DNA from: Ignavibacteria bacterium
Lineage (GTDB): Bacteria > Bacteroidota > Ignavibacteria > UBA10030 > SZUA-254
Reading direction: 5' to 3'
Length of the DNA stretch: 64,000 nucleotides
Assembly: GCA_031379665.1 (NCBI GenBank)
Contig: JANNFI010000046.1
Span: forward strand, 33,899-97,898
The notes under the pieces were generated by a model. The model had not been told where the DNA came from and searched no databases. It saw nothing but the letters and a program-made list of their open reading frames with translations. The position numbers and the translations under genes are program-made. The first letter of the stretch is position 1, and each line of letters begins with the position of its first letter. This document shows, piece by piece, positions 13,837 through 56,741 of the stretch.

Positions 13837-16176
13837 TCACTTGATGAGCAGCATCCTCTTCGATTGCCGGAAGCCTCCGTCCCCGGCGGAGAGGACATAA
13901 TAGTAGATCCCGGACGAAAAACCGAGGGCATCGAACTCCACTTCCGAGACGCCCTGCTCCAACGGTTCGGCGTCGAGCAGCCTGGCCACTTCACGCCCGA
14001 GCATATCGTAGACGGTGAGGCTCACAAGGGCGTCGGTCCTGAGGGCGAATTCGATCGTCGTGGAAGGGTTGAACGGGTTCGGGTAATTCTGGTAAAGCTC
14101 ATAGTCCAACGGCACGGCCGCGACCGGTTCACGCGGGAAATTCAGCGGTTCCAACAGCGGCGCAACGGCAGCCTGGAGGAAATCAACGCTGTCGATGCTG
14201 ATGACGCCTGTCGTGATCAACGGCACCTTCGAGATGACGGTCAGTGACCCGTAGAAGGCTCCGTTGATCTTCTCGAGCGTCGTGTCGAGGGTCGTCCAGT
14301 TGATCGGTTCATACCGGCCACCGTACGTGAGATAATTGTCCGCCGCCGCGGCGATCCCCCGGAGGGTCATGCCGTTGTAGGGATTGGCGGTATCCGCGTC
14401 GTCGTACGTGAGGTCGCCGAACATCGGGGGCGTCACTTCGGCATCGCTGGCGCCGATGTTGATCTTCAGTGCGATCAGCTCGCCGAGCGTCTTGTTGTTG
14501 TATTTGTCGAGCTTCGGATTCTTCTTTTCGCCGATGAACGGATTGCCGCCAAACGTGGTGTAATAGTCCGAAGGTCCGGTCTGGGGAATGAACTTGGATA
14601 TGTTCACGCCCTTGCTCATCCTGATCCACCCGAACGTCTCGTCGCTGTCCGGTCTGGCCTGGCCGAGGACCATCCCTCCCGGCGCCCCGGGGAAACCCTT
14701 CTTGATCTTGGGATAGGCGGCGGCGAACGCCTCATCACGGAGGTTGGCAAAGTTAGGGACGGACACCTCCGACTTGAGGCTCACGCCCTTTCCGATGATA
14801 TCGGCCTGACGGATCGTCCTGTATTTCAATTCGTCAGGATCAACGTGCTTGATCACGACGAAATCGGTACCCTTGCCCTTCGGTTTGACGCTCGAGGCTG
14901 CCACGTACACGGCGCCGTCGAGCTGGTGCATCCTGTACGGAATATCCTCGCTGTTCGCCGGTCCGTTGTACCGGATGTTCCACTGTTCGTTGCCGCCGTT
15001 GTTGAACCTGATGAGCTTCACGTCGTGTCCGGTGCCGGACCCGACGCTCGAGGCGAGCACCGTGGAGTTATTCCCTCCGACGACGGCAACGCCGGCGTCG
15101 TCGTCGTTGGCGACGCCGCTATGCACTGCGACCCAGTTCTCCGCCCCGTTGCTCTGGTTGTAGCGGATCGTCGTCACGTCGGTGAACGCGCCGGGCCGGA
15201 CGCTCTTCCCGGTGACGAACACGCGCGTATTCGACTGGAGGGCGATGCCGACGCCGTCGTCATCCAGGTGATCAGGACCGTCATAGCGGTTTTCCCAGCC
15301 CGTCGCACCGGTCACCGCGTCGTACTGCAGGGTGAGCATGTCGTATCCGGACGAATCGGTCGCGCTCGAGCCGGTGACGTACAGTTCCGTCGAAGCCCGC
15401 AACACCATGGCCCTCGCGACGCTCGAACCCGTCGTGGACATATACCGCGCACCCCAGAGCGAATCGCCGGTGCCGGGATTATAGCTGATCGTCTGGTACC
15501 CGTTGATCGTGTCCTGGCTCGTACCGGTCACGAAGAGGCCATCGAACCCATCGAGGACCATCGCCGTCACGCTATCGAGGCCGTTCGTCGGTCCGTCGTA
15601 TCGTTTCACCCACTGCTGGACACCGGCGGAATTGTACTTGAGCGTGGCGTAATCCAACCCGCCCGATAGACCGGCGCTCCATCCTGAAACGAAAACGTTC
15701 ATCGAATCGTCGACTGCAATTCCCGACGGGCCGTCGTCCCCGTTTCCCGTGCCGTTGTACCGTACGTTCCAGATCTCGTTGCCGAGGTCATCGTACTTCA
15801 CCGTGGCGATGTCGTAGCCCGATCCTGCGCCGGCGCTCATCCCGGTTACATAGACGTTCCCGGCCGTATCGATCGCAAGAGCGGCGCCTCGGTCCTCGCC
15901 GACGCCATTCTGATAATTCCTGACCCAGAGTCGGATGCCGTCGGAGTTGTATTTCGCGACGGCAAAATCAATGCCGGATGGCTTGTTGTCCATCCAGCCG
16001 GCGGCGTAGACATACCCTGAATCGTCGACGATCACCGAAACGGCGGCATTACTGCCCGTCTTGTTTGTCCCTGTGGTCCTGGAAACCCATTGCCGGGCCA
16101 GCTGCGCCTGGGCGGTGTCCGCGAGGAACGCGCACGACACAATGGCGATGAGAGAAATGGATCTCCCAGGTCTCAT
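13837..16176 (-). CDS. Secreted beta-propeller (SBBP-type repeats) protein with T9SS C-terminal sorting domain.
   Basis: Signal peptide; repeated GYD(I/M)ATVKY / YATLKYN units; C-terminal YQNYPNPFNPSTTIEF...LTVYDMLGREV Por-secretion tail. Confidence 0.75.
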   Translation of the reverse strand: MRPGRSISLIAIVSCAFLADTAQAQLARQWVSRTTGTNKTGSNAAVSVIVDDSGYVYAAGWMDNKPSGIDFAVAKYNSDGIRLWVRNYQNGVGEDRGAALAIDTAGNVYVTGMSAGAGSGYDIATVKYDDLGNEIWNVRYNGTGNGDDGPSGIAVDDSMNVFVSGWSAGLSGGLDYATLKYNSAGVQQWVKRYDGPTNGLDSVTAMVLDGFDGLFVTGTSQDTINGYQTISYNPGTGDSLWGARYMSTTGSSVARAMVLRASTELYVTGSSATDSSGYDMLTLQYDAVTGATGWENRYDGPDHLDDDGVGIALQSNTRVFVTGKSVRPGAFTDVTTIRYNQSNGAENWVAVHSGVANDDDAGVAVVGGNNSTVLASSVGSGTGHDVKLIRFNNGGNEQWNIRYNGPANSEDIPYRMHQLDGAVYVAASSVKPKGKGTDFVVIKHVDPDELKYRTIRQADIIGKGVSLKSEVSVPNFANLRDEAFAAAYPKIKKGFPGAPGGMVLGQARPDSDETFGWIRMSKGVNISKFIPQTGPSDYYTTFGGNPFIGEKKNPKLDKYNNKTLGELIALKINIGASDAEVTPPMFGDLTYDDADTANPYNGMTLRGIAAAADNYLTYGGRYEPINWTTLDTTLEKINGAFYGSLTVISKVPLITTGVISIDSVDFLQAAVAPLLEPLNFPREPVAAVPLDYELYQNYPNPFNPSTTIEFALRTDALVSLTVYDMLGREVARLLDAEPLEQGVSEVEFDALGFSSGIYYYVLSAGDGGFRQSKRMLLIK

Positions 16177-16207: not shown

Positions 16208-18622
<2,415 letters not shown>

Positions 18623-18782: not shown

Positions 18783-18795
18783 GCGACAGCCTTGT

Positions 18796-21700
18796 TCAGC
18801 GTATCAGTGCCGCTTTTCGAACAGTGCTGAACGTCCTTTGAATCTGCTCGCCTGCCCCCGGCTCCGGTACCGCGGTCAGCGCGATGAAGTACACCCCCGA
18901 ACCGAGAGGCATGCCGTCATCTCCCCGCGCCGACCACTCAAAGACATGATCACCGGCGGAATATTGCCGAACCGTCCCTTTCGAAACGACCTCTCCGAGA
19001 ACGTTGTAGACGGTCACTGAAACGATTGATTCGGAAGGCAGCGCAATCGCAACCCGGGTTGATGGATTGAAGGGGTTCGGATAACACTGACCCATCGAAA
19101 ACCCGGCAGGTATTCCGCCGTTACCGATTCCACGGGGCTGGACTCTGAGGAAAAATTTCGAGTAGGATGTGTGCGAATATCCAGCCTTCCCTCCGCCTTT
19201 CAGGGGGACCTTCGAAACTTCCTGGGTGCCGACCCTCTCAATAAGAATATAATCGAAAAAATCCTGAATTTCTACATTCCATGAAAAATTTATTTCACTT
19301 TCGCCGTTTTTAAGGACGATTTCATACTCGACCGGGTAATTCAGGGAGTCACTATGAAACACCCCAATTTTCGCATTTTTAAAGGAATGGCCGCCCTCCT
19401 GGCCGGGCGGTGCCGGCGGGGCATCGAGTGTCCCAACCTCCCCCCTGGCCCCAAAGTAGAGGGTCGACACACCGGACCCAATTCCGACATTGAGTGAGTG
19501 TGAAATACTTCCCCTCGAACCGTGTGCGGCAGCTTCGCTCCGGGCGACAACGGCCTGCGTGATGATCAACGATCCGCTGTCCAGGCACTTCACCCAGTAT
19601 CCTCCGCCGGGCGCCAGGGAATCGGATATTTGGTATCCCGACGGAGTGTATCCGTAATACGGCGAGGTGACGAGGCTCTCCGGAACGCTCAGGATGGTGG
19701 CGACCGGTGTGGCCGCCGTGAGGGCGCCAATGATGTTCCAGCCCTTCTGTACGGCGATCGTTTCGGCTGTGACGGGGCAGCCGGTCAGGGTGGCCTGTTC
19801 GGTCCGGATCCAGTACCCTTCCCCGTGCCTGAGCGTGTCCCGTCGGAGGTACCCGTTGCGGTAACCGTATGCGCCACCCGGCGAGAAAGGAAAGAGCCTG
19901 TCCGCCCGCCGGTCGCCGGTTTCCACCGGCAGCGACATCAGGACCCACGCCCCGTTCCCCGGGATCGTGACGACGGAGCCGGGACACTGGAGGACTTCCA
20001 GATCGCCGACTGACTGGTCTGGTACAAGGAGGGTGCTGTCCCGTCGCATGTTGGCGTTCAGGCGGTCTCCGCCGGTGGCGAGGTCCCGGATGACGATCGT
20101 CCCGGCCCTGAGACTCTCCGGATCCCACGAGAGGGTGAGAGGGTAACCGTCCGGGCCTGGTTGCGCTCGCGCGCGGTACCGGTGTTCGTCCGCCGGACCC
20201 GCAAGTGTGTCACGGTAGTCCCGCCGGACGCCGTTCGTGCCGGCCAGATCCCAGCGGGCGTCGAAGGTCCCGCCCGGGGGCACTGCGGGGAGCTCGGATT
20301 CGCCGAGCCCGACATCGATCGAGTCGGTGGCGGCGGCGAGGTTCCCGAAGGAGAGCGTGTCGGCGCCGGATCCGCCGTCCGTGACGAGAAGCCATCCGGT
20401 GAATTCCGCCGGAGATAGGATCGAAAAGGTCGAGTCGCTCACGTCGACGATGGAGGTATCGTCGACGCCCCGTATCCTGACCAAACCCGTCTGTGTTGTC
20501 ACGTCGGGCACGGTCCAGTCGAAAGCCCCCGCGTCCGCCGGGGCTTCGGTAACGTACGTCCATCCGGCGCCCCCGTCGGTCGAATATTCAATTGTCACGC
20601 TGTCGAGGCTGAAGGCGATCCAGAAGATCGTCGCGCCGGAGCCTGCGTCGAGGGCCTCGCCCCCGTCGGGCGATTTCACGGTGAGGTACGCGTCGGTGAG
20701 TGTGAACAACGATTCGCTCGTCCCCGCGGTGGAAGTGAACAGGGCGTCGGAGATCCGGACCAGGCACGACTCCGAGATGGTCGGCGGGGTCGCCCAGAGG
20801 TACGACGCCTGCGAGGCGGGCACGCTGTCCGCGATGACGTTCCACGAAGCGCCGTTGTCGGTCGAATACTCCAGTCGCACGCGATAGAGGCCGGTCGAGG
20901 ACCACGTGATGGCATACTGGGAATCGCCCAGCCAGACCTCGCCTCCGTCGGGCTGGAGGACGTCGATGCCCGTCGGGTACTGGTATTTATGGATGCCGTT
21001 CGACTGGAGCGCCAGGAGGGTGAGGGAGTCGAGCGTGAGGAGGCCATAGTTGAAGTGAGAGCCCGGCATAAGGCCGTCGTTGATCTTCGACCAGTTGTCA
21101 CCGGAATCCCTTGAGAAATAAATTCCGAGCTTTGACGTGTCGCCGAAATAGGTTCCATAGTACACATACCCGGGGTGGACCGGGGAACAGGTCACCCACC
21201 AGGTATCGAGGTTGCCAGAGGGAACCGTGATATTATGCCAGGTCTCGCCCCAGTCCGTCGACTTGACCATCCCCCCTCCCCCTCCGAACTTGCTCGCATA
21301 GGCCACCCTCGGGTTGAGCGGATCGATCGCGATACTCGGGATCTCACCGAGGGTCGCATAGACCTTGCGCCATGACGAGCCGTGGTCTGCGGTCTTCCAG
21401 ATGCCGGAGAGATTGTCGCCGGCGTACATCACCGCGGCGCTGTCCGGCCGGAGCGACGCGTCACACCAGGCGTTGAACCCACGCCCGGTGCAGACGGTGT
21501 CCCAGGTCAATCCGAAATCGATCGACCGATAGACCGTATCGAGGCCCATGGTGTAGACGGTGTCGGGATGGGAAGCGGAGAATTCGACAGGCTGGCCGTA
21601 GTACGAGAAGCTCCCGGACCAGGTCTCGGTCCAGGTCAGGCCCCCGTCAGAGGATCGCATGATGCGGTCGGGGAACCCGACGCTCGACTCCATACCCACG

Positions 21701-21975
21701 AGCATCTGCAGGGTGTCGGCAGGATTGACGGAGACAGATTTCACGATGCCCCCGCCGGTGACGAGCGCGCCGTAGTTCGCCCAGTTGTACCCGCGATCCC
21801 GGCTGACGAAGACGCGGTTGCCGCCGGCCGCCGCGTAAAGCACGTCCTGGTTCAGCGGGTTGACTGCAAGGGGATTACCCAGCCCCGGTCCCGAGATTTT
21901 CTTCACCCAGGCCTGGGCGGAGAGTCCCGCGGCCAGGATCGCGGTCAGGCACAACAGTGCGATCCCGATACGCAT
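18796..21975 (-). CDS. Secreted BNR/sortilin-type beta-propeller multi-domain protein with T9SS C-terminal domain.
   Basis: Signal peptide; SxDxGxTW BNR-like motifs (SSDGGLTW, STDWGETW, STDNGASW); C-terminal QCYPNPFNPSTRVAI...VTVYNVLGEVV. Confidence 0.7.
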   Translation of the reverse strand: MRIGIALLCLTAILAAGLSAQAWVKKISGPGLGNPLAVNPLNQDVLYAAAGGNRVFVSRDRGYNWANYGALVTGGGIVKSVSVNPADTLQMLVGMESSVGFPDRIMRSSDGGLTWTETWSGSFSYYGQPVEFSASHPDTVYTMGLDTVYRSIDFGLTWDTVCTGRGFNAWCDASLRPDSAAVMYAGDNLSGIWKTADHGSSWRKVYATLGEIPSIAIDPLNPRVAYASKFGGGGGMVKSTDWGETWHNITVPSGNLDTWWVTCSPVHPGYVYYGTYFGDTSKLGIYFSRDSGDNWSKINDGLMPGSHFNYGLLTLDSLTLLALQSNGIHKYQYPTGIDVLQPDGGEVWLGDSQYAITWSSTGLYRVRLEYSTDNGASWNVIADSVPASQASYLWATPPTISESCLVRISDALFTSTAGTSESLFTLTDAYLTVKSPDGGEALDAGSGATIFWIAFSLDSVTIEYSTDGGAGWTYVTEAPADAGAFDWTVPDVTTQTGLVRIRGVDDTSIVDVSDSTFSILSPAEFTGWLLVTDGGSGADTLSFGNLAAATDSIDVGLGESELPAVPPGGTFDARWDLAGTNGVRRDYRDTLAGPADEHRYRARAQPGPDGYPLTLSWDPESLRAGTIVIRDLATGGDRLNANMRRDSTLLVPDQSVGDLEVLQCPGSVVTIPGNGAWVLMSLPVETGDRRADRLFPFSPGGAYGYRNGYLRRDTLRHGEGYWIRTEQATLTGCPVTAETIAVQKGWNIIGALTAATPVATILSVPESLVTSPYYGYTPSGYQISDSLAPGGGYWVKCLDSGSLIITQAVVARSEAAAHGSRGSISHSLNVGIGSGVSTLYFGARGEVGTLDAPPAPPGQEGGHSFKNAKIGVFHSDSLNYPVEYEIVLKNGESEINFSWNVEIQDFFDYILIERVGTQEVSKVPLKGGGKAGYSHTSYSKFFLRVQPRGIGNGGIPAGFSMGQCYPNPFNPSTRVAIALPSESIVSVTVYNVLGEVVSKGTVRQYSAGDHVFEWSARGDDGMPLGSGVYFIALTAVPEPGAGEQIQRTFSTVRKAALIR

Positions 21976-30007: not shown

Positions 30008-30008
30008 C

Positions 30009-38805: not shown

Positions 38806-38851
38806 AGGGAAGAAATATCCGGGGTATCCGCGATGGGTGGCGGATACCCCG
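38806..38851 (-). terminator. Rho-independent terminator downstream of the 38863-42036 gene.
   Basis: Perfect 12-bp stem CGGGGTATCCGC/GCGGATACCCCG with an 8-nt loop, T-rich on the minus strand after the stem. Confidence 0.55.
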
Positions 38852-38862
38852 AATTCAACCGT

Positions 38863-46400: not shown

Positions 46401-46634
46401 CCCGTCCTTCGCCGGGTTGTAACCGATGACGCCGTTCGAATTCGCCCACATCGTCATCCGGTTGATCGTCAGGGCGGCGGAGGTCGGGGCGCCGGACGCC
46501 GCTTTCGCGGGCGTAGACGTCGGCGCGCCGACTGGTCGCGCGGAAGCGCCGACCGGTTGCGCCGGAGCCCCGCAGTACGCCAGGACGACGAGCAGGATGA
46601 GGGACACCCTCCGTAAGGCCGATTTCGGAATCAT
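43404..46634 (-). CDS. Large secreted protein, candidate PorU-like T9SS component (C-terminal-signal peptidase position).
   Basis: About 1077 aa from the internal Met with a good signal peptide (MIPKSALRRVSLILLVVLAYCGAPAQ); divergent CTD-like C-terminus (VFPNPYYG...VIRIFNLGGDLV); translationally coupled to porV. The catalytic C25-like domain was not verified. Confidence 0.4.
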   Translation of the reverse strand: MIPKSALRRVSLILLVVLAYCGAPAQPVGASARPVGAPTSTPAKAASGAPTSAALTINRMTMWANSNGVIGYNPAKDGPGVVFPRGSSTVVSREGILWGGFVNDGEEEFLRIGGQSFQSATVPGRIVQPGVRENPSSPDVRIFRIRSDWATGDLRRDASDTYGIPDVLVTDADLARLRDQYKRDWLEWPWDKGAPYYERNGTPGYQPNPGALNDSVSDEPGLAGADQVLWFVANDLDSAAVRNLYGSLPIGLEMQVTCWAYNRPGRLGDVVYQKYRLIYKGNARTPANARIDAMVISKWVDADIGNYSDDYAGYDAPHQLGYAYNAEVSDFEFDKVGTVPSVVGYGLLQGPRVESPGSTAYWDGGMVDGYANQPVGSFTYLDGDVRNGDARLGDFRGLITMWYLMNGYEGVFSEFPECFIDPLTQSCTKFELTGDPETFAGWVDGTEIPKGDRRLLLSTSPFSLARGDTQEVVFALGGGVGTDNRSGIPRVRESVGAARDLFLVNFTAPATIPSPTVRPIELDDKIILDWESDAAALAAVESYSSRGFRFENFELFQLPLADSPFEDWVPLPAFNVLWPRFLDITHDYVRDRPLVNGQKYYFALRSRAFNPNVAFFDQRIYSAPVILPVTPHSPNPGVVYPYSAGEVVSDAYDIVGTNGATVDVTYYDPTRPDGHIYKILYHRSPSQLIDLFTKPWWDLVDSTAGDTLLRGISMDSAAARVVERGFTVECHSPPYGLKGVYETVSGGDSLRSPVFNQPNPGLNYMTVGAGSSYLDTILGGNPLDVDVELRFGDSSWSLMLAPTAPSSRWTRVPFTAWQTGVVSGDTILRQIYTVITGSGSDSLWRASVLLDREYNGQTLEEFYPLTIVSDSQRLGTGSIAGTYNDNIPWEPVEGPRVKGFLWVNGGTYSVKNAVWKVYFVDLDLDDVPAPPGTVVRFERYKLVRNGDEKVFTPASVSTNDVSAARQAVEKVNVFPNPYYGFNSAETDRFEHYITFSHLPVRAVIRIFNLGGDLVRTIEKDDASQFTTWDLNNHNGLPVGGGLFVAHIEMKDETGVDLGSKTLKLMIVPEQQTLQLR

Positions 46635-46727
46635 TTGCAGCGGGACCGTACCGACGATGAGTAGTGCAAGGGGAGAAACGTTGTACAATGTACGGAAAAC
46701 GGGGACTGATTTCAAGCGTTCAGGGCA

Positions 46728-46808: not shown

Positions 46809-49800
46809 CTATTTCAGGAGCAGCATCTTTCGCGTTTCGATGAACGATCCCCGGCCGCCGGTTTCCAGCCCGGATGAAGTCGCGGCCATCCGGACATAGT
46901 ACGCGCCGCTCGGCATTGGGGACCCGGACGAATTCTGGCCGTCCCAGGTGACGGAATAGACGCCCGGGGAATAATCGCCATCGGCAAGAACAGCAACTTC
47001 CCTGCCGAGAAGGTCGTAGACTGTGACCCGGACCCTCGAGTCGGTTTCGGCCGAGAAGGCGATCTGCGTCGTCGGATTGAACGGGTTGGGGTAATTCTGC
47101 GAAAGCTGGTAGCCGGTCGGGGTCGACGGCCGGGGCGGCTGTACGTCATTGATGAGCGGGTACGCGCCGTACCGGATCAGGAGCACGCTCGTGACGCTCG
47201 AATTGGCAACCGAGACGGTGCCGGTCTGGTCCATCCGCGCATACACCGATGATCCGCCGAATTCGTCCCTGACGATCATGCTATCGCAGACCGAGGTGAT
47301 GAAATTCCTCTCCCACGAGAGTACGATCGGATAGCTCCCGGTCCCCGGCTGGAACCGTACGCGGTACGTATCAACCTGGGAATAGGTCACGAACGGGAGC
47401 AGGTTGACCCTGAGCCCCTCGCCGAGGTCGCACGAAGGCCCGCCGGGAGAAACGAATCGGGCGTCGAATGTGCCGGGGAATGGCGGGGGCGGCAGTTCGA
47501 ACTCTCCGAGCCATGCTTCGATTCCGCACGATGCGTCGGGATGGAGGCCGAGGTAGACCGTGTCCCTGGCCTGGCCGGTCTCACGGATCGCGAGCGGCAT
47601 CAGCCAGTTGGCAACCCCAATGAAGGTCGTCCTGAAGTTGAAGATCGGCGACCACGAACCCGTCCCCACTGAATTCTTCCCCTGGACGCGCCAGAAATAC
47701 CGTATGTGGCTCTGCAACGGGCCGGTCTGCCAGCTTGTATTCACGATGTTCGAATCGTCCGAGAAGATGCTCGTGAACGCGGAGTCCCGCGCGACCTGGA
47801 GCCGGTACGACACGGCGTTTTCCGGTACGCTCCAAGAAAAGACCGGCGCCGATGTGACCCCCTCGGCATTGTACAATGGTGAAATCAGCGTCGGTGCGGC
47901 CGGCGGAGAGAGCGTGGTGAATCGGTAGAAATTCGAATACGGACTGGTACCGGCGGAATTGTTCGCGCTCACCCTCCAGTAGTAGGTGGTGCTGTTGAGT
48001 AAAAAGGTAAATGTCTTGCAGCGGTTCGACCCCGACGACGTGTCGTTGTAGGTGAGGGTCGAAAAATTGGAATCGATGGCGACCTGAAGGCGGTACGACG
48101 TAGCCCTTGCGGCCGAATCCCAGCACAGGTTGACCGGAAGCGGCAGGCTCCCCGAGCCGTTGGCCGGTGAGGCCAGCAGGGGCGCCGACGGTGTCGTAAG
48201 CGCCGTCGTCCTGAACCTGAAGTAGGCCGAGGGCGTCCCCTGCCCGAGATTATTCACCCCGCGGACCCTCCAGAAGTGGTCGGTGTTCCCGTCGAGGGGA
48301 CCGACAAGCAGCGAGGTTGCGCCCACCGTCTGGTCTGTGACGATCAATGTAAAGAGTGAATCCCTCGCCAGTTCGAGGCGGTACTGGAACGCGCAGGCTT
48401 CGCCCTGCCAGCTCAGCGTGGTGATTTCGTCAACGTTCAGCGTGCCGTTGGCCGGAAGAAGAAGTCCCGGGGCCGAGGAAAGGGCCCGGACGACGCGGAA
48501 GTTCCTCGAGGCATAGGGCCCTGCGCCGGTGCCGTTCTTTGCCCGGACGCGCCAGTAATACGTCCGGCAGTTCTCGAGCGGGAGTGTCACGAAGGTTGTA
48601 TCGGTGATGGTATCGTCGCTCACGAGCGATGCGAACACGGCGTCGGTGGCGACCTGGACCTGGTAGGAATCGACCTGTGTTGCGCTCAACCACCGTAGCG
48701 GCGCGGACGGGGGCACCGCGGTATCGCCGGGCGCCGGCGCGAGGATTGACGGGGCAGCGGGTGCATTGAGGAGCGTCGTGAACCTCCTGGCCGGACCGTA
48801 GGCGCCGGTGTCGGTCCCCTGGTTCTTCGCCCGCACCCTCCAGAAATAGATCGTGAGCTCCTGGAGCGGACCGACCGAGCGGGACAAGGTCGTGAGGTTG
48901 TCGAAAACGAGCGGCGATGAGAAGAGCGAATCGGCAGAAACTTCCAGCTTGTACGTTTTTGAACAACTGTCGGCGCCGCTCCAGGAGAGCGTCAGGGTGG
49001 TCGGCTGTGCGGCCGCGTTGTCGGCCGGGGAGACCGGCGCCGGAGCGCCGGGGGCGGCAAGGGCGACGGTGAACGAGCGGACCAGCGACCAAGGGCTGCT
49101 GCCCGTGGCGTTCTTCGCACGCACCCTCCAGTACCGGGTCACGCAATTCGGGAACGGACCCACCGCCTGGGATGTGAGCGTGATTGTCGAGTCGACGAAC
49201 ACGAGCTGTGTGAAATTCTGGTTGGGCGAGACCTCGAGCCGGTAACTCGTCGCGGTCGCGGCCGCGTTCCAGCTGAGTGTCGGCGAGACGGCGACGCCCG
49301 AGGCCCCGTTCGCCGGCGCGGCGAGCGTCGGCGCCGGGGGGCCGGTCGTAATGGTCTGGAATGAGGCCGTCGACGAGAAGCAACCGGTCAGGAACGGATG
49401 CACCGCGCTTACCCTCCAGTAAATCGTATCGTTGGGCCCGACCGTGAAGGCCCGGGTCGTAGTCGAGAGAGTATCCCTGAGGACGAACGTCGCGAACGTG
49501 GGGACCGTCGAGACATGGAGGATATATTCCGTAGCGTTGGCCACCGGCGGCCACGTGAAAGTCACGTTCGTGTCGACGTCGATCGCGCCGCTCGCGGGGG
49601 TGGTGGTCGTCGGCACGCCCGGGTAGCTCTGCGCCTTCGGGTGATAGAGGAAGATATAGAGGGAATTGAACGAGGTGTTCGTCAGCACGAAAGAGTCAAC
49701 CGCCAGCATATTGACGCTGACGCCGCCGAACTGCGGCGGCAGGCCGATCGGGTCGCGCAGCCTGATGCTGTCGGCGAACACAGACAACCCCTGGGGCCAG

Positions 49801-50207
49801 CGAAACTTGAACGGGTACCCCCCCGCCCCGGGCTGGAACTGGATCTTGAACGTGTCGACATCGGACCCTCCGGTGAAACCGGTGATGTTCTCAGCCATCC
49901 CCACGCCCAGGCACGCGCCCGTGTTCCTGACTTCGACGAAACGTGCGTCGAACACCCCGCCCGGCGGAATCGGGGGAAGCTCCGACTCCACGATCGTGTC
50001 GCAGTTCCCGAATTTCAGTGTGACGCCGTCGATGCAGTAGGAGGCCTGCGGGTGAACGCCAAAGATCAGCGTGTCGCGCTTGACCGTGTTGTCACTGACG
50101 TAGAAGGGAATCCTGAACTGCGTCTGGGAAACAAGGGAGCCGACCGCGGAAAGCAGCACAATGAGGATGGAGACCGCCGCCCGATATGTCGATGGTCGTG
50201 GTAGCAT
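46809..50207 (-). CDS. Secreted protein with about 9 tandem Fn3-like repeats (PxxPxLxxPANG...SYRLxV...YYWRVRAKN) and T9SS C-terminal domain (1132 aa).
   Basis: Repeated ~90-aa units each ending in YYWRV(R/S)AxN; two ELPPxPPxGxFDARF modules; C-terminal LSQNYPNPFNPTTQIAF...VTVYDLLGREV. Confidence 0.7.
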   Translation of the reverse strand: MLPRPSTYRAAVSILIVLLSAVGSLVSQTQFRIPFYVSDNTVKRDTLIFGVHPQASYCIDGVTLKFGNCDTIVESELPPIPPGGVFDARFVEVRNTGACLGVGMAENITGFTGGSDVDTFKIQFQPGAGGYPFKFRWPQGLSVFADSIRLRDPIGLPPQFGGVSVNMLAVDSFVLTNTSFNSLYIFLYHPKAQSYPGVPTTTTPASGAIDVDTNVTFTWPPVANATEYILHVSTVPTFATFVLRDTLSTTTRAFTVGPNDTIYWRVSAVHPFLTGCFSSTASFQTITTGPPAPTLAAPANGASGVAVSPTLSWNAAATATSYRLEVSPNQNFTQLVFVDSTITLTSQAVGPFPNCVTRYWRVRAKNATGSSPWSLVRSFTVALAAPGAPAPVSPADNAAAQPTTLTLSWSGADSCSKTYKLEVSADSLFSSPLVFDNLTTLSRSVGPLQELTIYFWRVRAKNQGTDTGAYGPARRFTTLLNAPAAPSILAPAPGDTAVPPSAPLRWLSATQVDSYQVQVATDAVFASLVSDDTITDTTFVTLPLENCRTYYWRVRAKNGTGAGPYASRNFRVVRALSSAPGLLLPANGTLNVDEITTLSWQGEACAFQYRLELARDSLFTLIVTDQTVGATSLLVGPLDGNTDHFWRVRGVNNLGQGTPSAYFRFRTTALTTPSAPLLASPANGSGSLPLPVNLCWDSAARATSYRLQVAIDSNFSTLTYNDTSSGSNRCKTFTFLLNSTTYYWRVSANNSAGTSPYSNFYRFTTLSPPAAPTLISPLYNAEGVTSAPVFSWSVPENAVSYRLQVARDSAFTSIFSDDSNIVNTSWQTGPLQSHIRYFWRVQGKNSVGTGSWSPIFNFRTTFIGVANWLMPLAIRETGQARDTVYLGLHPDASCGIEAWLGEFELPPPPFPGTFDARFVSPGGPSCDLGEGLRVNLLPFVTYSQVDTYRVRFQPGTGSYPIVLSWERNFITSVCDSMIVRDEFGGSSVYARMDQTGTVSVANSSVTSVLLIRYGAYPLINDVQPPRPSTPTGYQLSQNYPNPFNPTTQIAFSAETDSRVRVTVYDLLGREVAVLADGDYSPGVYSVTWDGQNSSGSPMPSGAYYVRMAATSSGLETGGRGSFIETRKMLLLK

Positions 50208-50285
50208 ACCTGAGAGTAAGGAAATGCGGAAGCTCTCCGTGGGGAGAACTTCCGCATCTCGGAATTAATCCGGGTAGAATGAGTA

Positions 50286-51176
50286 TTACTTGAGGAGCAG
50301 GAGCTTGCGCAGCCCGCTGAACCCGGCGTCGTCGCCGGTCGCGACCATCCGGACGAAGTAGACGCCCGTCGTGACGCTCTGGCCATTGTCGTCGGTGCCG
50401 TTCCAGGTCGTGGTGTAGAAACCCGGTGTCATTGTTTCCGCGGCGAGAGTCTTCACCCTCTGCCCGATGACGTTGTACACCGCCACATCCGTGAACGCCG
50501 TCTTCTCAACCGCGAACCTGATGGTGGTCGAAGGATTGAAGGGATTGGGATAATTCTGCTGGAGTTCGAATTGCTCGGGAATCAGCTCGCCTTCGCGGTC
50601 GATTTCGAGAAGGCCCGCACCCTTGGAGCGTCCGATGATGATCAGCGACGTGAACGCCGAATTAGTGACGATGAGCTGCGTATCGACCAACATGTTGACT
50701 CTGAAGCCGAACGGCGGACCCGCGCCAAACGGGTCTTCGATCTTCAGGCTGTCCCAGTCGGATGCGATCCACGCGGCCCAGGTCCCCCACGAGAAGGTGA
50801 ACGGGTATCCGCCGTCGCTCGGCTGGAATTCCATTTTGAAGGTGTCGAGTTTGGCGACTTCCTGAATGTGGAGCCGCTGGCCGGTGCCGAGGCACGGACC
50901 GCTGGTGCGATGGTCCGTGAAACGGAAGTCGAAGACGCCTGTCGGCGGCTTGGGAGGAAGTTCCTCTTCGAAATATCCGCCGGGCGAGAGCGTCGCGTCC
51001 TTGCAATATGTTGCGTTGATGTGAACCCCGAACGTGTCCGTGCCGACACCTATGCCGTTGTCACGGGCTGTGATCGGCACGACGCCGTAATCATTCTGCG
51101 CGAATGAGCTGGAGACCGCGAGGGCCAGAACCGCGAGCGCCACAACAAGGGTGAGCCGAAATGTTTGCAGGTTCAT
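50286..51176 (-). CDS. Small secreted protein with ELPPKPPTGVFDFRF module and T9SS C-terminal domain.
   Basis: Signal peptide from Met at 51176; C-terminal LQQNYPNPFNPSTTIRF...VAVYNVIGQRV. Confidence 0.65.
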   Translation of the reverse strand: MNLQTFRLTLVVALAVLALAVSSSFAQNDYGVVPITARDNGIGVGTDTFGVHINATYCKDATLSPGGYFEEELPPKPPTGVFDFRFTDHRTSGPCLGTGQRLHIQEVAKLDTFKMEFQPSDGGYPFTFSWGTWAAWIASDWDSLKIEDPFGAGPPFGFRVNMLVDTQLIVTNSAFTSLIIIGRSKGAGLLEIDREGELIPEQFELQQNYPNPFNPSTTIRFAVEKTAFTDVAVYNVIGQRVKTLAAETMTPGFYTTTWNGTDDNGQSVTTGVYFVRMVATGDDAGFSGLRKLLLLK

Positions 51177-51292
51177 CTGATGTAGCCTTCCTCTGATAAG
51201 TGTAAAATTGTCCGGTGATTTAGTGTCAGGTGCCTCGCACCGACCGCCAAGGGGAATATACAAACTGATTTTGTCTAATTCAACAGATCAAT

Positions 51293-51335
51293 CGGGTAAA
51301 AACAGTTCCTCCGCATCCCGCTAAGGATGCGGAGG
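51293..51335 (-). terminator. Rho-independent terminator downstream of the 51351-56741 gene.
   Basis: Perfect 11-bp stem CCTCCGCATCC/GGATGCGGAGG with a 6-nt loop, followed on the minus strand by a T-run. Confidence 0.55.
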
Positions 51336-51350
51336 AAAGGAGCCTGACTC

Positions 51351-54300
51351 TTACTTCACCAACACCATCTTCTTCACCTGCGTGAACGTCTCCGATCCGA
51401 TGCCGGCGTCAACGTCGGCGATCGTTTCAGCAACGATTCGGTACAGGTAAACGCCCGAAGGCAGCGAGCTTGCGTCGAATTCGACGGTCTCACTCAGCTC
51501 GATCTCTTCACGGTCGAACAGCGTCGCGACTTCCTGGCCCAGGAGGTTATAGACCTTGAGCGTCACGATCGATGTCTGTGGGAGTTCGAACTCGATGGTC
51601 GTCGTCGGGTTGAACGGGTTCGGATAGTTCTGCGACAGAGCGAACTCGGTCGGGACCTGATCCACCGTCTCTCCGGCGTGTCGGTTCTTTGGCGCCACAC
51701 CCGGGTTCGGTTTCAGGTACGAAACCTGATACACGGACGTATACGCCTTCCACGTGAGTTTCGGCGAGGCCCACCCTTGCAGGGTGTCGTCCGTCGCCGG
51801 ATTGTCAAACGCGCCGTTGATCTTCGCGACGACCGTATCGAGCCCGGCGTAGATGCTGAGCGGCATGAATTCGAAGTTGGTCATCACGGTGTCAGCGTAG
51901 TCCGCGATCTCGTCGATGGTCATCCCATCGAAATCAGAGAGCGGGTCGCTGTAGATCAACGAGCCAAGTCCCGCGGGGGTCTTCAGGCCGCTGGCAACCA
52001 GGTTCAGTTGCAGGGCAAGGAGCTCACCGAAGAGCTTGTTGTTCTGTTTCTTGTTCGGGGCGAAGGCCTTCTGAAGCTTCAGGAACGGCTTGCCCTTGAG
52101 GTCCTGATCGAAGCCACGGGCCATTCCGGTGTGCTGCGCGCTCTTGTTGTTGAGCGATTTCCAGAAAGCGCTCTGCTTGTTCGGGATCACGTGGGCCTTC
52201 ACCTTCCCGCCGGCGTTGAACTGGCCGGTGAGACCTACCTTGATCGCTCCGATCGCCTGACCGGTTTTCCCGATCAGCTGGTCGACAAGGTTGGCCGTGT
52301 TCGGCTTGTTCTTGATCGGATCGTACGGCTTGCCGGCTTTCGGCGTCTTGCCCGGTTTCTTTTCGGCGTCGGCGCCCAGCTGTGCCGCGGTGAACGTGCG
52401 GTACTTGGTTGAGCTGTCCGTTGTCTGGAAGAGACCGAAGTTAAGGGCCGTCGCCGCCCCGCCGCTCAGAAGAGCGACCGGGTATTTCCCTGCCAACGGC
52501 TGGCTGATGACAAAGCCGACTGGTACGGTGATGCGCACCGTATCCACGTCGATCTGGCCGTTGAACGAATAGCCCGATCCGTCGGAGACGTCGATGCCGC
52601 CGTTGACCGCGAGGTCAACAGACACACCCGACATCGCCGCATCCGGTCCGTCCATGATGCCGTTACCGTTGTAGTCACGGTAGACGATACCACTGACGTC
52701 GGTGTTGTCGAAGTTACCGAAGTCCTTGCCGGTGGTGACGACGAAGTTACCGCTGATGCCACTGATGGCATACGTGCCAGGGCCGCTCGGCATCGTCCTC
52801 GTCCATCCGGATTGGACCACTTCTCCGACCACGTGGGAACCGGTGAACACGCTGTCGATGGAGTAGTTGCCGCTTCCATCGGTCACCGTGCTGAAGTTAC
52901 CGAAGTACACGCCGCCGGCCACTGCGATCGTCCAGCCTGAGAGACCCGGCTCTCCGCCTTCCTTCACGCCGTTGCCGTTGAGGTCGTTGAACTTCGTGCC
53001 GCTGATCACCAGATACTTGAAGTCGAGGTAGTCGGCAGTGTCGATCTGGCCGCTGGTCGCGACGATCATACCCTGGAGACCACTCTTCGTCCTGCGCCAT
53101 CCGGCGATCGAGTCGAGTTCCTGCACGACATAGGTGCCGAGATCGAGCTCGGTAAACGAAGCCGCGATCACACCGTTGCCGAGCGTGAACACGCTGTCTG
53201 CCGTGTAACCGACTCCGTTCTTCGTCAGCTTGAAGCTTGAGCTGGATCCGGACGGGACGGCAATGATGTCGCCGACGTCCCTGATGCCGTTGCCGTTCTG
53301 GTCAACAGTCAGCTGAACGCGCAGCTTGCCGTACACGAAGTTGCCGAAGTCCTTGTTGACCGCCGTCGGCGTACCGCCGGTGATGTTGGCGGTGTGGAAC
53401 CCGCCGACAGGACCGGTCTGACGCGCGATAGTGGTATCCAAGACTTCAGTGACATAGAACACGCCGCCGTAGGCGGGAGCGAGAATCGAGTAGAGACCGC
53501 TCCCGTCCGTGACGTCCGAACCAACGAACGCGCCGGCGGTCGAATCGCGATGGACTTCGATCGTCCAGCCGGAGAGTCCGGGTTCGGCGTCATTGACGCC
53601 GTTGTCGTTGATGTCTGAATACTTCTTGCCACTGATCGACCCGGCAAACGTGCCGAAGTTCTGGGTGATCGTGCTGCCGTTCGAGGGGTGATTGATCGTG
53701 GCGGCATTAGAAGTGCCAAACGGAACGGTGAACGCGAAACCCGTGACATTGAGTTTGACCTCATAGCCCGCGGGCAGCGAGACGCCGCTCCAGGTGTAAT
53801 TGCCGGTACCGCTGGTCACCACTGAATCGATGAGCGAACCGAACAACGAGATATACACCTTCGTGGCCGTGATGTCGGCTTCGCCGTCATCGACGCCGTT
53901 GCCGTTCACGTCGTTCCAGGCGTGGCCGGCGATCGTGCCTCCCGTGAAGACCGGGGCGGTGGCGCCGAGGCTGAAGTTATCGAACGCCCATCCGCCGAAC
54001 GCCGCTGATGCATCGGAGAATGCGACGTAACGGAACTTGACGGCTGATGCGCCGACCAGTGCCGCGTGGCTGGTTTCCGTGACCTTCAGCTGGACATAGA
54101 CGTAACCGGTCGGGCCGACAGGCAACCCATTTCCAGGTGTGCCGGTGACGCCGTTGTCGTTGCTCGTCCACGACGCCGGGGGATCAGCAAGACCGTACAA
54201 GGCGGCCGTCGCGTCGTCCCAATTAGCCAAATCCAGGGCGGCATGCTCGTAGAGAGCTTCGTCGTACCAGTTGATGCCGTTCGCATCGTTCAGGACGCCG

Positions 54301-56741
54301 AGGGTGCTCCAGTTGGTGCCGTCAACCGTGTATTGGAGCCAGCTGCGGTCCCACAGGGGTTCGAGCTCTATGCTGTGCTGGAACGAGATGAAGAGGTTGG
54401 TTCCGGCGAAGCCCGAGATGTCGAGCCAGGGGCTCTCCAGGTGGTTCGCGCCGGGATACGTCGTGGCATAACCGTGTGCGGAGGCGTTAGAGCCCTCCGT
54501 GTAGGTCGATGCGTTGTCGGGACGTTCAGTGACCCACGACGCGCCCGAGCCGCCGTTCACGCCGCCGAGCTTCGTGAACGTCGACGAGCGTTTCCAGTCG
54601 ATCGCACCCGTCCAGCCTTCAGCGCTTGCGTTGAAGGTGTACGTGGCGGGAGGAACGACGGGAGCACTGACAGGCTGCGCAGCCCTGATGAGCGTGTTGT
54701 TGGGGATGTTCGCATCGGCGAGGGCCGTCACTGCGGTGATCACCCTGGGGCCTGCGCCAACCGGGGTCCACGAAGCGAATGTGATGCTCTTCGACTCGCC
54801 GGCCGCGAGGACCACGGGTTTCGAATCGCTGTACCCTTCAACGGAAATGGTCAGCAGGATGCTGCTCACCACCGGGGTCTGCGAGTTGTTCTTCACAACA
54901 ACCACCGGGATCTGCGGAACGCCCGCGGGAACGCCACCTGCCGGAGGACTCGTGATGGTCGTCGGCAAGATGTCGCTGGCGAGGAACGCGCTCAACGGGC
55001 TGAACTCGTCAGCTCCCGCATCGCGTTTTCCGGCCACCGTCGTGTCCCTGGGGTCTCCGTCGATGTCGTCGGCGAGGAGGAGCAGGGATTTCCCGATTTG
55101 CTTCGCGCTCGACACCGTCGCGGTATCGATATGCAGGTCCGCGCTGAAATTCACCGGACCGTACAGACCGTTGTTATTCACGCCGGCCGCGAGGGCGGCG
55201 GTAATCGTCGTCAGGCCGGAGACATACCGGCCGCTGCCGGAATGGATGGCGTTATAATTCGCCGCGCCCGCCGCCACCACGTTGATGCCGCGCGTGCTCG
55301 CGACGGTACCGCCCGTGATGTTGTTGGAGAAGGCGTTGTTGGTGATCGCCGTTCCACCGCTCTGATTGAGGCAGGTGGAAGTCATGCCGAGGCCGGTGGC
55401 ACCGACGAGACCCACCGAGTTGTGATAGATCCTCGTCGACTGGGTCCTCATACCCGTGATAGAGCCCCCAGACGGATCGAAGTTCGTGATGTTCGTGACC
55501 CGGTTGTTGTACACAAGCCAGGTCCCGGCGAACGTCACCCTCGCGGTGATACCGAGGATGATGCCGCCGCCACCAAAGCCCGCGGCTGCGGGAAGGGTGA
55601 CTCCGTTGATGTAGTTATTGGAAATTTCGGAGTTCCCATCGCCGTAGTACGCTTGAATGGCACCGTACTGACCGAAATTGAAAAGGAACGACTGGGGCGC
55701 TCCGGCGAACACCCAATCGATGTCCCATTCGGTCGTTCCATTGTTCCAGTAGTAGGCGTTGACTTCGATTCCCTTGAAGTTGTTACCGGTGATATCGAGG
55801 TTAGTGCCGAATTCCGAGTAAATACCCAGGAGGAGCTTGCCGCCGTAGGTACCACCGAAATTGTTGTTGCTGACGGTAATGCCGTTCTGTTCGATCTGTC
55901 CGATGTCCGCATCCTCGGCGAGGATCTTGACGCCGAAGGTGCCGTCGATGATCGTATTGCCGCTGATCGTGATGTCGGAATTTCCGATGGCATCCGCCAC
56001 GCCGACAAACAGGAAGATCGCGCATCGACCATCGGTCTGGGCTTCGAACGTGCCGTCAAGATTCCCGTGGATCGTCGAATTGAGAATCGAGATGTCCGAG
56101 CTGCCGTTGGTCATATAGACCGTCGAGGCAAGCGCATCGCCCGCCGGGAACGGATCGGAGTTGCGCCAGCCGAGTGCCAGGCTCGCGCCGCCGGTGTTCA
56201 AACCGTCGATGGTGACGCCCGAAGCTCCGTCGAAGGCGAAACCCTTTCCTTCGGTGGCCGTTGAAATGAAGCTCACCGTGACCGCAGTGGCGGCCGCGGG
56301 CTGTATCGTGAGGGTATACGTGCCTGCGCCCGTGTAAGCGCCGAACGTCACAGGCGCCAACTCGAGGTAGCTCGCGCTGGCGAGCTCGAACGTGGTGTTA
56401 CCCGAGAGACCGACGAAATTCAACACCGCGACAGCGGCGCCGATGTTCGCAAAGTCTCCGGGAATGGAATACGTCCCGCTCAACCCGAGTGCGTACTGGG
56501 TCTTTGCCGCGGACTTGTCGATCGGGAGTCTCATCGTCGGCCGGGTCATCCCCGAGACTGCCTGTCGGTCGAAACGGCTTGCGCCATTCTTTCCGATGCT
56601 CTGCAGGTCTTCGTCGATGATCCGGGTCGGCCTGTTCGATTGCTGGCCCGAGTTGACTCCATCCCCTCGCCCGGCGATCGCCTGGGTGAAGGTCATCACC
56701 AATATTACGGTGAGGACAAAAAGGAGTTTAGCTTGTTTCAT
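51351..56741 (-). CDS. Giant (1796 aa) secreted protein with parallel beta-helix-like repeats, several SdrD-B/Cna-B-like domains and T9SS C-terminal domain.
   Basis: Signal peptide; repeated NDxNGNGxxDxGExGLSGWTI units (SdrD B-like); NNxITGG beta-helix-like repeats; shared FGELLALQLNLVASG module; C-terminal LSQNYPNPFNPTTTIEF...LKVYNLLGQEV. Confidence 0.7.
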   Translation of the reverse strand: MKQAKLLFVLTVILVMTFTQAIAGRGDGVNSGQQSNRPTRIIDEDLQSIGKNGASRFDRQAVSGMTRPTMRLPIDKSAAKTQYALGLSGTYSIPGDFANIGAAVAVLNFVGLSGNTTFELASASYLELAPVTFGAYTGAGTYTLTIQPAAATAVTVSFISTATEGKGFAFDGASGVTIDGLNTGGASLALGWRNSDPFPAGDALASTVYMTNGSSDISILNSTIHGNLDGTFEAQTDGRCAIFLFVGVADAIGNSDITISGNTIIDGTFGVKILAEDADIGQIEQNGITVSNNNFGGTYGGKLLLGIYSEFGTNLDITGNNFKGIEVNAYYWNNGTTEWDIDWVFAGAPQSFLFNFGQYGAIQAYYGDGNSEISNNYINGVTLPAAAGFGGGGIILGITARVTFAGTWLVYNNRVTNITNFDPSGGSITGMRTQSTRIYHNSVGLVGATGLGMTSTCLNQSGGTAITNNAFSNNITGGTVASTRGINVVAAGAANYNAIHSGSGRYVSGLTTITAALAAGVNNNGLYGPVNFSADLHIDTATVSSAKQIGKSLLLLADDIDGDPRDTTVAGKRDAGADEFSPLSAFLASDILPTTITSPPAGGVPAGVPQIPVVVVKNNSQTPVVSSILLTISVEGYSDSKPVVLAAGESKSITFASWTPVGAGPRVITAVTALADANIPNNTLIRAAQPVSAPVVPPATYTFNASAEGWTGAIDWKRSSTFTKLGGVNGGSGASWVTERPDNASTYTEGSNASAHGYATTYPGANHLESPWLDISGFAGTNLFISFQHSIELEPLWDRSWLQYTVDGTNWSTLGVLNDANGINWYDEALYEHAALDLANWDDATAALYGLADPPASWTSNDNGVTGTPGNGLPVGPTGYVYVQLKVTETSHAALVGASAVKFRYVAFSDASAAFGGWAFDNFSLGATAPVFTGGTIAGHAWNDVNGNGVDDGEADITATKVYISLFGSLIDSVVTSGTGNYTWSGVSLPAGYEVKLNVTGFAFTVPFGTSNAATINHPSNGSTITQNFGTFAGSISGKKYSDINDNGVNDAEPGLSGWTIEVHRDSTAGAFVGSDVTDGSGLYSILAPAYGGVFYVTEVLDTTIARQTGPVGGFHTANITGGTPTAVNKDFGNFVYGKLRVQLTVDQNGNGIRDVGDIIAVPSGSSSSFKLTKNGVGYTADSVFTLGNGVIAASFTELDLGTYVVQELDSIAGWRRTKSGLQGMIVATSGQIDTADYLDFKYLVISGTKFNDLNGNGVKEGGEPGLSGWTIAVAGGVYFGNFSTVTDGSGNYSIDSVFTGSHVVGEVVQSGWTRTMPSGPGTYAISGISGNFVVTTGKDFGNFDNTDVSGIVYRDYNGNGIMDGPDAAMSGVSVDLAVNGGIDVSDGSGYSFNGQIDVDTVRITVPVGFVISQPLAGKYPVALLSGGAATALNFGLFQTTDSSTKYRTFTAAQLGADAEKKPGKTPKAGKPYDPIKNKPNTANLVDQLIGKTGQAIGAIKVGLTGQFNAGGKVKAHVIPNKQSAFWKSLNNKSAQHTGMARGFDQDLKGKPFLKLQKAFAPNKKQNNKLFGELLALQLNLVASGLKTPAGLGSLIYSDPLSDFDGMTIDEIADYADTVMTNFEFMPLSIYAGLDTVVAKINGAFDNPATDDTLQGWASPKLTWKAYTSVYQVSYLKPNPGVAPKNRHAGETVDQVPTEFALSQNYPNPFNPTTTIEFELPQTSIVTLKVYNLLGQEVATLFDREEIELSETVEFDASSLPSGVYLYRIVAETIADVDAGIGSETFTQVKKMVLVK

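Follow-up and report, generated by a model that had tools for sequence, protein, structure and literature searches.

The DNA analyzed here is a 64-kb window (positions 33,899 to 97,898 of contig JANNFI010000046.1, assembly GCA_031379665.1) from an uncultured bacterium of the Ignavibacteria type; its genes are named below by their low coordinate. According to the six-frame list of open reading frames (ORFs) and their translations, positions 13837 to 56741 carry 17 consecutive genes, every one on the minus strand, with products of 182 to 1796 amino acids. Eleven of these encode proteins with a C-terminal sorting domain (CTD) of type A, as in type IX secretion system (T9SS) cargo. The remaining six encode a lamin-tail-domain (LTD) protein that lacks a CTD, a protein here called X, a PorV/PorQ-family outer membrane β-barrel, and the three proteins of a putative chaperone-usher-like pilus operon. 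A first-pass annotation, made from the sequence letters, had correctly described this block as one-directional and had assigned to it 13 genes for products of 325 to 1796 residues, a count and a size range that do not hold.

The cargo array and its sorting domains

The CTDs were identified with the NCBIfam model TIGR04183 (curated cutoff, 23 bits) and cross-checked with the Pfam families Por_Secre_tail and FlgD_ig. Exactly 11 of the 17 proteins pass the cutoff, with scores of 24.8 to 42.9 bits; the two Pfam families concur, and the match ends no more than ~35 residues before the stop codon in all 11. The tails proposed in the first-pass annotation thus do match the T9SS profile, although the consensus given for them was too strict: (Q)NYPNPFNP is found in only 9 of the 11 aligned CTDs (the variants are CYPNPFNP in 18796 and QPNPFVP in 27830), and the xYDxLGxxV motif is loose. 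A hidden Markov model of the 11 CTDs, run against the six-frame translation of the window, detects no further CTDs save a weak match at the C terminus of X (E = 0.006). Taken together, these results support the view that genes for T9SS cargo with type-A CTDs are densely clustered at this locus.

Sec-signal-like N termini, in which a basic n-region and a hydrophobic h-region are followed by an A-x-A↓Q-type cleavage site, are seen by inspection in all 17 translations, as had been claimed. At least 11 of the 17 predicted cleavage sites leave an N-terminal glutamine (SALA↓QSE, GVVA↓QTD, and PVNA↓QPL, for instance), which is consistent with the “Bacteroidetes Q-rule,” a rule reported for Ignavibacterium album as well (Q-value, 77%; PMC5837995). 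The signal peptide of the 804-residue cargo has an h-region with a (VL)n run that is encoded by a tandem repeat, (GAGGAC) × 6.8, at positions 18557 to 18597 (LLVLVLVLVLVLILLV). Orthologues of this cargo lack the run and are ~6 residues shorter; the repeat is an in-frame microsatellite that alters the length of the signal peptide.

An all-against-all BLASTP comparison does not bear out the notion of 13 giant paralogs. Full-length similarity is confined to a single pair, 27830 and 30009 (31% identity over 753 residues, E = 3e-88), and the three pilus-type genes are not T9SS cargo at all. Everything else that is shared consists of the CTD, common to 11 proteins, and three short modules. Module A (~150 to 230 residues) precedes the CTD in 13837, 16208, 36797, and 51351; module B (~130 residues) is found in 18796, 22012, 38863, and the LTD protein; and module C (~100 residues) is found in 18796, 22012, 38863, 50286, 36797, and, twice, in 46809. 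The claim of shared, shuffled modules, uncharacterized ones included, is therefore borne out, and the named domains (PSII_BNR/Sortilin/BNR, SBBP, fn3/Ig_Rha78A_N, SdrD_B, and LTD) are all recovered by domain profiles. The N-terminal payloads, ~450 to 1480 residues long, are unique at the BLASTP level (residues 1 to 1479 of 51351, 1 to 1002 of 22012, 1 to 660 of 38863, 1 to 477 of 16208, 1 to 451 of 13837, and 186 to 866 of 46809).

The paralogous modules are only 25 to 45% identical. At the DNA level, the array contains no near-identical repeats; those present are confined to CTD-coding stretches, 60 to 88% identical over at most 152 nucleotides (nt), the top one showing 88% identity over 54 nt. 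The possibility that the CTD-coding ends were subject to recent duplication or to gene conversion with one another was considered and is rejected on the basis of these values, which indicate that the duplications are old. The best explanation is that the shared modules date from ancient duplication and shuffling, before the compared lineages split, with no ongoing diversification.

In the direction of transcription, the first cargo gene (51351..56741) encodes 1796 residues with SdrD_B/SpaA-like repeats (Pfam SdrD_B, E = 3.1e-18), module A, and a CTD (TIGR04183, 42.9 bits); it forms a transcription unit of its own, and orthologues are found at the matching position in loci L001, L002, L004, and L012 of the relatives described below. 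The next gene (50286..51263), an ORF of 325 residues read from TTG, consists of module C and a CTD (29.1 bits; FlgD_ig, E = 3.5e-10). Its L001 orthologue is 79% identical, and its true start is probably an internal one at MNLQ..., giving ~300 residues. The 1132-residue product of 46809..50207 combines two copies of module C with fn3/Ig_Rha78A_N repeats (Pfam fn3, E = 2.9e-16; Ig_Rha78A_N, E = 5.4e-27) and a CTD (25.0 bits). Beyond X and its partner barrel come a 1057-residue cargo (38863..42036), in which 660 unique N-terminal residues are followed by modules B and C and the CTD (40.5 bits), and a 650-residue cargo (36797..38749) with modules C and A and a CTD (41.0 bits).

The remaining cargos lie downstream of the pilus-type genes. 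The full-length pair consists of a 766-residue protein (30009..32309) with a double propeller of the Ycf48/BNR/sortilin type (PSII_BNR, E = 2e-62; CTD, 34.5 bits) and its 725-residue paralog (27830..30007; PSII_BNR, E = 4.9e-57; CTD, 24.8 bits). Gene 22012..26202 (1396 residues) has a unique N-terminal part of ~1000 residues with ASH/choice-of-anchor-D Ig-like domains, followed by modules B and C and the CTD (37.3 bits). A Sortilin/BNR propeller (Sortilin-Vps10, E = 5.7e-17) precedes modules C and B and the CTD (29.1 bits) in the 1059-residue product of 18796..21975. The 804-residue cargo (16208..18622) carries a WQDxR-repeat β-propeller (TIGR04275, E = 6.9e-18), module A, and a CTD (35.1 bits), and the final gene of the array (13837..16176, 779 residues) carries an SBBP propeller (E = 3.1e-10), module A, and a CTD (32.0 bits). 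Domain-profile scans show no catalytic family reaching threshold in any of the 17 proteins, and PDB sequence searches with X, the pilus trio, and three cargos return only FlgD-like and S-layer matches at the CTD region.

The 407-residue LTD protein (26439..27662; LTD, E = 2.9e-13) contains module B and lacks a CTD, both in the window and in the closest metagenome-assembled genome (MAG). Its orthologue in locus L009 (~6160 to 7500) runs into a full type-A CTD, and the gene is probably a former cargo gene that has lost its CTD. No CTD remnant is found in the three frames of the 236-nt gap downstream (26203 onward). A frameshift artifact is ruled out by this result and by the occurrence of the same short form in the closest MAG.

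Protein X, its partner barrel, and a putative cryptic pilus operon

Protein X is encoded by an ORF of 1103 residues from TTG (43404..46715), or ~1076 residues from the likely start. It contains a supersandwich domain as well as Ig/fn3-like domains and a CTD that is divergent. In the AlphaFold model (mean predicted local distance difference test [pLDDT] score, 84.5), the fold is a galactose-mutarotase-like supersandwich with Ig-like domains. The core domain resembles the supersandwich domains of GH15, GH65, GH94, and GH116 enzymes and of aldose epimerases, and Foldseek searches return generic Ig/fn3 matches. The family has no Pfam domain and is large; clustered at 50% identity, it counts at least 2,801 representatives at E ≤ 1e-30. 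Some of its Ignavibacteria members (1360 to 1384 residues), located in the same syntenic slot, have an additional N-terminal Ycf48/BNR (PSII_BNR) propeller.

The stop codon of X overlaps by 4 nt the start of the adjacent gene (42328..43407), whose 359-residue product is a PorV/PorQ-family β-barrel (NF033709, 150.9 bits versus a cutoff of 90, residues 51 to 358). Its scores remain below the equivalog cutoffs of PorV (NF033710, 61.9 versus 250 bits), PorQ (NF033711, 70.4 versus 220 bits), and PorV2 (NF052325, 66.2 versus 325 bits), so that the “porV” of the first-pass annotation is right as to the family and not as to PorV itself. Immediately after X, there is a PorV-like gene in each of the seven lineages examined, among them a Latescibacteria MAG and a 5.4-Mb genome that is more distant. 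In these last two, a TonB-dependent-receptor-like gene (CarboxypepD_reg plus Plug) directly precedes the pair. By analogy with PorU on PorV, PorZ on PorQ, or the cargo/shuttle pairs of Flavobacterium, X is probably docked on its own barrel through the divergent CTD, and it may bind glycans. The attachment components of the T9SS in Ignavibacteria were not the subject of any paper returned by a literature search.

The genes for the 182-, 278-, and 859-residue proteins encode signal peptides and no CTDs. The 859-residue protein (32397..34976) has the predicted fold of a FimD/PapC usher (model pLDDT, 79.5), with a large β-barrel between an N-terminal domain and C-terminal sandwiches of the CarboxypepD_reg-like type. 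This predicted fold agrees with the architecture that defines an usher (a 24-stranded translocation barrel with a plug and soluble end domains). The family is narrow, comprising 25 homologues in Ignavibacteria-type MAGs, among them a few distant ones at 22 to 27% identity (one named Gemmatimonadaceae). The 278-residue protein (34996..35832), whose gene precedes the usher-like gene by 19 nt, matches no sequence in Pfam or the PDB; its size, signal peptide, and position make it a putative periplasmic chaperone. The 182-residue protein (36097..36645), a putative pilus subunit, is better conserved than any other in the locus (identity to relatives, 93%, 85%, and 68%). The copy in the window matches DUF4402 below the cutoff (E = 0.023), and three of four orthologues match this family, the best with E = 7.6e-5; no paper mentioning DUF4402 was found in the literature search.

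A strong hairpin follows the subunit gene, ahead of the chaperone and usher genes (~36028 to 36075). It is flanked by an A-run and a U-run, its position is kept in L001 and L002, and it is a candidate terminator or attenuator. In classic pilus operons, a hairpin likewise follows the subunit gene and precedes the remaining genes. With moderate confidence, the three genes can be regarded as a chaperone-usher-like pilus operon coding for a subunit, a putative chaperone, and an usher.

Transcription units and conservation among relatives

Folding of each intergenic gap, combined with a terminator scan, recovered all five hairpins of the first-pass annotation and a sixth one that it had missed, after the 650-residue gene. 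The description of all five stems as perfect was only partly right, as three are perfect and the other two contain G-U pairs or a bulge. All these structures are on the minus strand. The hairpin after the 1796-residue gene (51306..51337) has a 14-bp stem followed by CUGUUUUU; L001 and L002 have a hairpin of different sequence at the same position. After the 325-residue gene (~50221..50260), an ~18-bp stem with G-U pairs and no clear U-run is near-identical in L001 and replaced by a different hairpin in L002. The terminator hairpin after the 1057-residue gene (38817..38854) has a 15-bp stem followed by AUAUUUCUU, with a changed loop in L001 and another stem in L002. The sixth hairpin (~36751..36782) has a 14-bp stem without a U-run; the stem is altered in L001 and yet pairs, and L002 has another long hairpin. 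Finally, a terminator hairpin (13779..13812) with a 13-bp stem and, after it, UUUCAUUUUU closes the array.

Perfect Watson-Crick stems of at least 11 bp (11 to 13 bp) occur three times in the 64 kb, as opposed to a mean of 0.2 in shuffled sequence. All three are located directly after array genes, in the intergenic DNA that makes up 7.7% of the window. The hairpins after 13837, 36097, and 51351 have a clear U-run, and that after 38863 has a looser one. A strong hairpin is found at all five comparable junctions in both the ~80%-identical relative L001 and the ~53%-identical relative L002, with altered or unrelated sequences. The hairpins therefore look like functional terminators, as their positions are kept while their sequences diverge. 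A generic promoter/terminator scan, the criteria of which are too loose, yields no more terminator-like sites than expected from shuffled sequences (14 versus 15.1 and 20 versus 15.9), so that the argument is carried by the count of long stems and by the conservation of their positions. The same scan includes a σ70-like promoter match (11/12) at 42205 to 42233, upstream of the 1057-residue gene, σ70 matches being uninformative for this phylum.

A strong hairpin follows only 6 of the 17 genes, which contradicts the statement that each has its own terminator. Five junctions are tight (43404/42328, −4 nt; 30009/27830, 1 nt; 34996/32397, 19 nt; 16208/13837, 31 nt; and 22012/18796, 36 nt), suggesting operon junctions. 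The best explanation is that the block is transcribed in seven or more units, several of them multigene, which are delimited by conserved hairpins; thus, the earlier proposal of separate transcription units holds, but not that of one terminator per gene.

In the closest relative, the uncultured Ignavibacteria MAG MFD02809.bin.2.75 (loci L001, L007, and L010), 16 of the 17 genes are found in the same order, and the same flanking genes come after them. Identities are 60 to 93% for the array genes and 76 to 95% for the nine flanking genes that have an orthologue in the fetched loci; the array thus shows no acceleration. The order is also kept over the parts covered by contigs in L008 (~75% identity), L009 (~60%), L002/L003 and L004 (~40 to 55%), L011 (~50%), and L012. 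In all, the gene order holds in six related metagenome assemblies of Ignavibacteria, down to ~50% protein identity. In L002, the cargos are 36 to 43% identical, versus 53% for X, 51% for the barrel, and 68% for the 182-residue subunit; taking L002 and L004 together, the values are 53 to 54% for X versus 36 to 54% for CTD cargos. At this depth, then, the cargos have diverged somewhat more than X, the barrel, and the pilus genes, as is ordinary for surface-exposed proteins. The 804-residue cargo belongs to an orthologous family of ~800 residues with more than 100 homologues listed, most of them from Ignavibacteria-type MAGs.

The array has a G+C content of 58 to 65%, as do its flanks, and domain-library scans of the window proteins detect no integrase or transposase, including near tRNA-Asp. 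The flanks consist of housekeeping genes, which include, on the low-coordinate side, those for a GWxTD-domain protein, an LpxL-type acyltransferase, a heptosyltransferase, Sua5, a MATE transporter, and PrmC, and on the high-coordinate side, those for tRNA-Asp, tRNA-Ser, and EamA and MFS transporters. The GWxTD gene (12280 to 13671, minus strand; TIGR04514, 83 bits) is directly downstream of the array and is followed, here and in the closest MAG, by the lipid A acyltransferase and heptosyltransferase genes, so that genes of lipopolysaccharide (LPS) biosynthesis adjoin the T9SS cargo block. The tRNA-Asp gene (57512 to 57587) precedes the first array gene by ~770 nt. The tRNA-Ser gene (59106 to 59188) overlaps the 5' end of an ORF with a weak GvpL/GvpF-like match (57700 to 59205), the listed start of which is therefore probably wrong. 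An Rfam scan of the window finds three tRNAs and no other RNA family. Two intergenic tandem repeats were noted, one between the fn3 cargo 46809 and X (46727 to 46758, AGGGTTGAATAA × 2.7) and one downstream of the 1059-residue cargo (18748 to 18783, GAGTTACAGTT × 3.3).

Interpretation and comparison with known systems

We interpret the locus, with a probability of about 0.8, as a conserved cluster of cell-surface genes, passed on vertically, in an uncultured bacterium of the Ignavibacteria type within the Fibrobacterota-Chlorobiota-Bacteroidota (FCB) group. It would comprise 11 T9SS cargos with β-propeller (Ycf48/BNR/sortilin, SBBP, and WQDxR), Ig/fn3, and SdrD-B payloads, a CTD-less LTD relative, the X/barrel pair, and a pilus operon, arranged in at least seven transcription units. 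Judging from what is known of the protein families, each cargo would cross the inner membrane through Sec, a T9SS translocon whose genes lie elsewhere in the genome would recognize its CTD, and a PorV-family shuttle would hand it over for display on, or release from, the outer membrane; surface display of the cargos is inferred in this way. X would probably use its CTD to dock on the partner barrel, in the way that PorU sits on PorV and PorZ on PorQ.

Several observations weigh against this interpretation. None of the T9SS core genes (porK/L/M/N and sov) is found in the 64-kb window, and a T9SS in the host is inferred from the CTDs and the PorV-family gene. In the pilus operon, hhalign comparisons of the 859-residue family alignment with Escherichia coli FimD and of the 278-residue protein alignment with E. 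coli FimC are not significant, which leaves the usher assignment to the predicted fold, and the putative roles of the “chaperone” and “subunit” follow from position and the weak DUF4402 match. Two of the six hairpins, those after 50286 and 36797, have no U-run. All comparators are metagenome assemblies, one with apparent frameshifts, and gene content is not entirely constant among them. The SBBP cargo gene 13837 is absent from the closest MAG (L010, 12398 to 12529) and is present at 52% identity in L011, which indicates loss in the former. In L009, the orthologue of 22012 (~7980 to 8380) has collapsed to ~130 residues, with its N terminus joined to the CTD end, and L002 has an extra gene (5083 to 6387) for a 434-residue short paralog of the fn3 cargo 46809. 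These differences are single events. Lastly, the propeller types of the cargo payloads occur in glycan-active enzymes too.

One alternative is that the locus serves mainly for glycan capture or degradation, in the manner of a polysaccharide utilization locus, with the propeller cargos and X binding or cleaving surface polysaccharides rather than acting as adhesins or a coat. The carbohydrate-associated supersandwich of X, the TonB-dependent-receptor-like gene ahead of the X/PorV-like pair in the Latescibacteria MAG and the more distant genome, and weak matches of the BNR/sortilin propellers to the “F510_1955 family glycosylhydrolase” model all agree with it. However, no glycoside hydrolase, lyase, or esterase family scores above threshold in the 17 proteins, the PDB sequence searches mentioned above return no enzymes, the array contains neither a SusC/SusD pair nor a sugar-metabolism gene, and the supersandwich domains matched by X are accessory, not catalytic, ones. 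On balance, we consider a glycan-processing locus unlikely.

The first-pass annotation had seen in the array a diversifying surface-protein or adhesin island, varying by duplication, shuffling, and turnover around a porU/porV pair. Modules do recur in different combinations, the cargos are less conserved at depth than X, the barrel, and the subunit, three single-gene differences exist among relatives, and a tRNA-Asp gene is located just upstream. Yet the synteny comparison shows conserved order, an outcome that the first-pass annotation itself had named as speaking against a diversifying island: 16 of 17 genes are orthologous and collinear in the closest MAG, the order is kept down to ~50% identity, and the array has diverged to the same extent as the flanking housekeeping genes. 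Moreover, the modules and DNA repeats are too dissimilar for recent exchange (25 to 45% and at most 88% over 54 nt, respectively), there is neither a compositional anomaly nor a mobility gene, and the 804-residue cargo forms a family of one length throughout the Ignavibacteria MAGs. This makes a diversifying island very improbable. Least probable of all is that X is a very divergent PorU and that the pair forms a PorU-PorV sortase module which cleaves CTDs and attaches cargo to LPS: X has the size of PorU (~1,100 residues), is directly upstream of, and translationally coupled to, a PorV-family gene, much as porU and porV are adjacent in Bacteroidia, and weakly matches PorU and PorZ at its C terminus and, in Foldseek, the structures 6za2 (PorU) and 5m11 (PorZ), but the PorU model NF033707 gives 15.0 bits versus a cutoff of 420 and covers the CTD only (residues 991 to 1093), the PorZ model NF052228 gives 19 versus 260 bits, the TM-scores are 0.07 for PorU and 0.09 for PorZ, the model of X contains no propeller, and an alignment of 34 X homologues shows neither a Peptidase_C25 match nor an invariant Cys or His outside the CTD, so that the “porU-like” label has to be dropped.

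A more far-reaching extension of the conserved-surface-cluster interpretation is tentative and, in our estimate, rather doubtful. In it, X and its PorV/PorQ-type barrel would constitute an undescribed, widespread T9SS-associated outer membrane module of FCB lineages outside Bacteroidia, in which a glycan-binding X, held on the barrel by its CTD, takes the anchoring or LPS-delivery role of PorZ/PorQ or PorU/PorV, and the cargo array and the cryptic pilus would form with it one co-inherited surface-organelle locus.

Among known systems, the fim and pap operons of E. coli are the reference for the pilus-type trio, which differs from them in lacking sequence-level resemblance to FimD and FimC as well as matches to the Pfam families Usher and PapD, and in having a DUF4402-like subunit rather than a Fimbrial-family pilin. 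The chaperone-usher-like operon thus escapes sequence profiles, and it suggests that usher-type pili exist in this group.

In Flavobacterium johnsoniae, cargo with a type-B CTD is paired with PorP/SprF shuttle proteins (PMC12618676). As in these pairs, X is a surface protein linked to a dedicated outer membrane barrel. However, the barrel in the window belongs to the PorV/PorQ family and matches PorP/SprF weakly (Pfam, E = 0.0023; NCBIfam, 25.9 versus 90.55 bits), and the C terminus of X is type-A-like, not type-B. The attachment complex of Porphyromonas gingivalis includes PorU-PorV and PorZ-PorQ subcomplexes, and PorZ binds the glycan of A-LPS (anionic LPS) (PMC8545088). Here, too, a large CTD-bearing surface protein is encoded with a PorV/PorQ-family barrel, and the carbohydrate-associated fold of X recalls the glycan binding of PorZ. 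The differences are the lack in X of a C25 peptidase domain and of twin propellers, the failure of both equivalog models, and the scores of the barrel below the equivalog cutoffs of PorV, PorQ, and PorV2. The X family, paired with a PorV-like barrel in every lineage inspected, is a candidate for the cargo-attachment step of T9SS outside Bacteroidia.

The array as a whole is closest to the T9SS type-A cargo clusters of Bacteroidota (TIGR04183/PF18962), such as the gingipains and the Flavobacterium and Cytophaga sets. It shares with them the Sec signal, the C-terminal Ig-like sorting domain of ~80 residues, the large multidomain propeller/Ig/fn3 proteins, and the presence of a PorV-family barrel nearby. 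It differs in that the host is of the Ignavibacteria type, outside Bacteroidia, where T9SS has been studied, that no catalytic payloads are detected, that 11 cargo genes form one conserved block, and that the window is without the core machinery. The array can serve as a reference for a stable and syntenic set of large, nonenzymatic T9SS surface proteins kept by Ignavibacteria-type bacteria. Both the X family and the pilus operon can be tested by genetics or proteomics in cultured relatives like Ignavibacterium or Melioribacter, if the locus is present there. The array itself is an ordinary, though unusually dense, T9SS cargo cluster in a little-studied lineage; of more interest than the array are the X family and the cryptic usher-like system that it contains.

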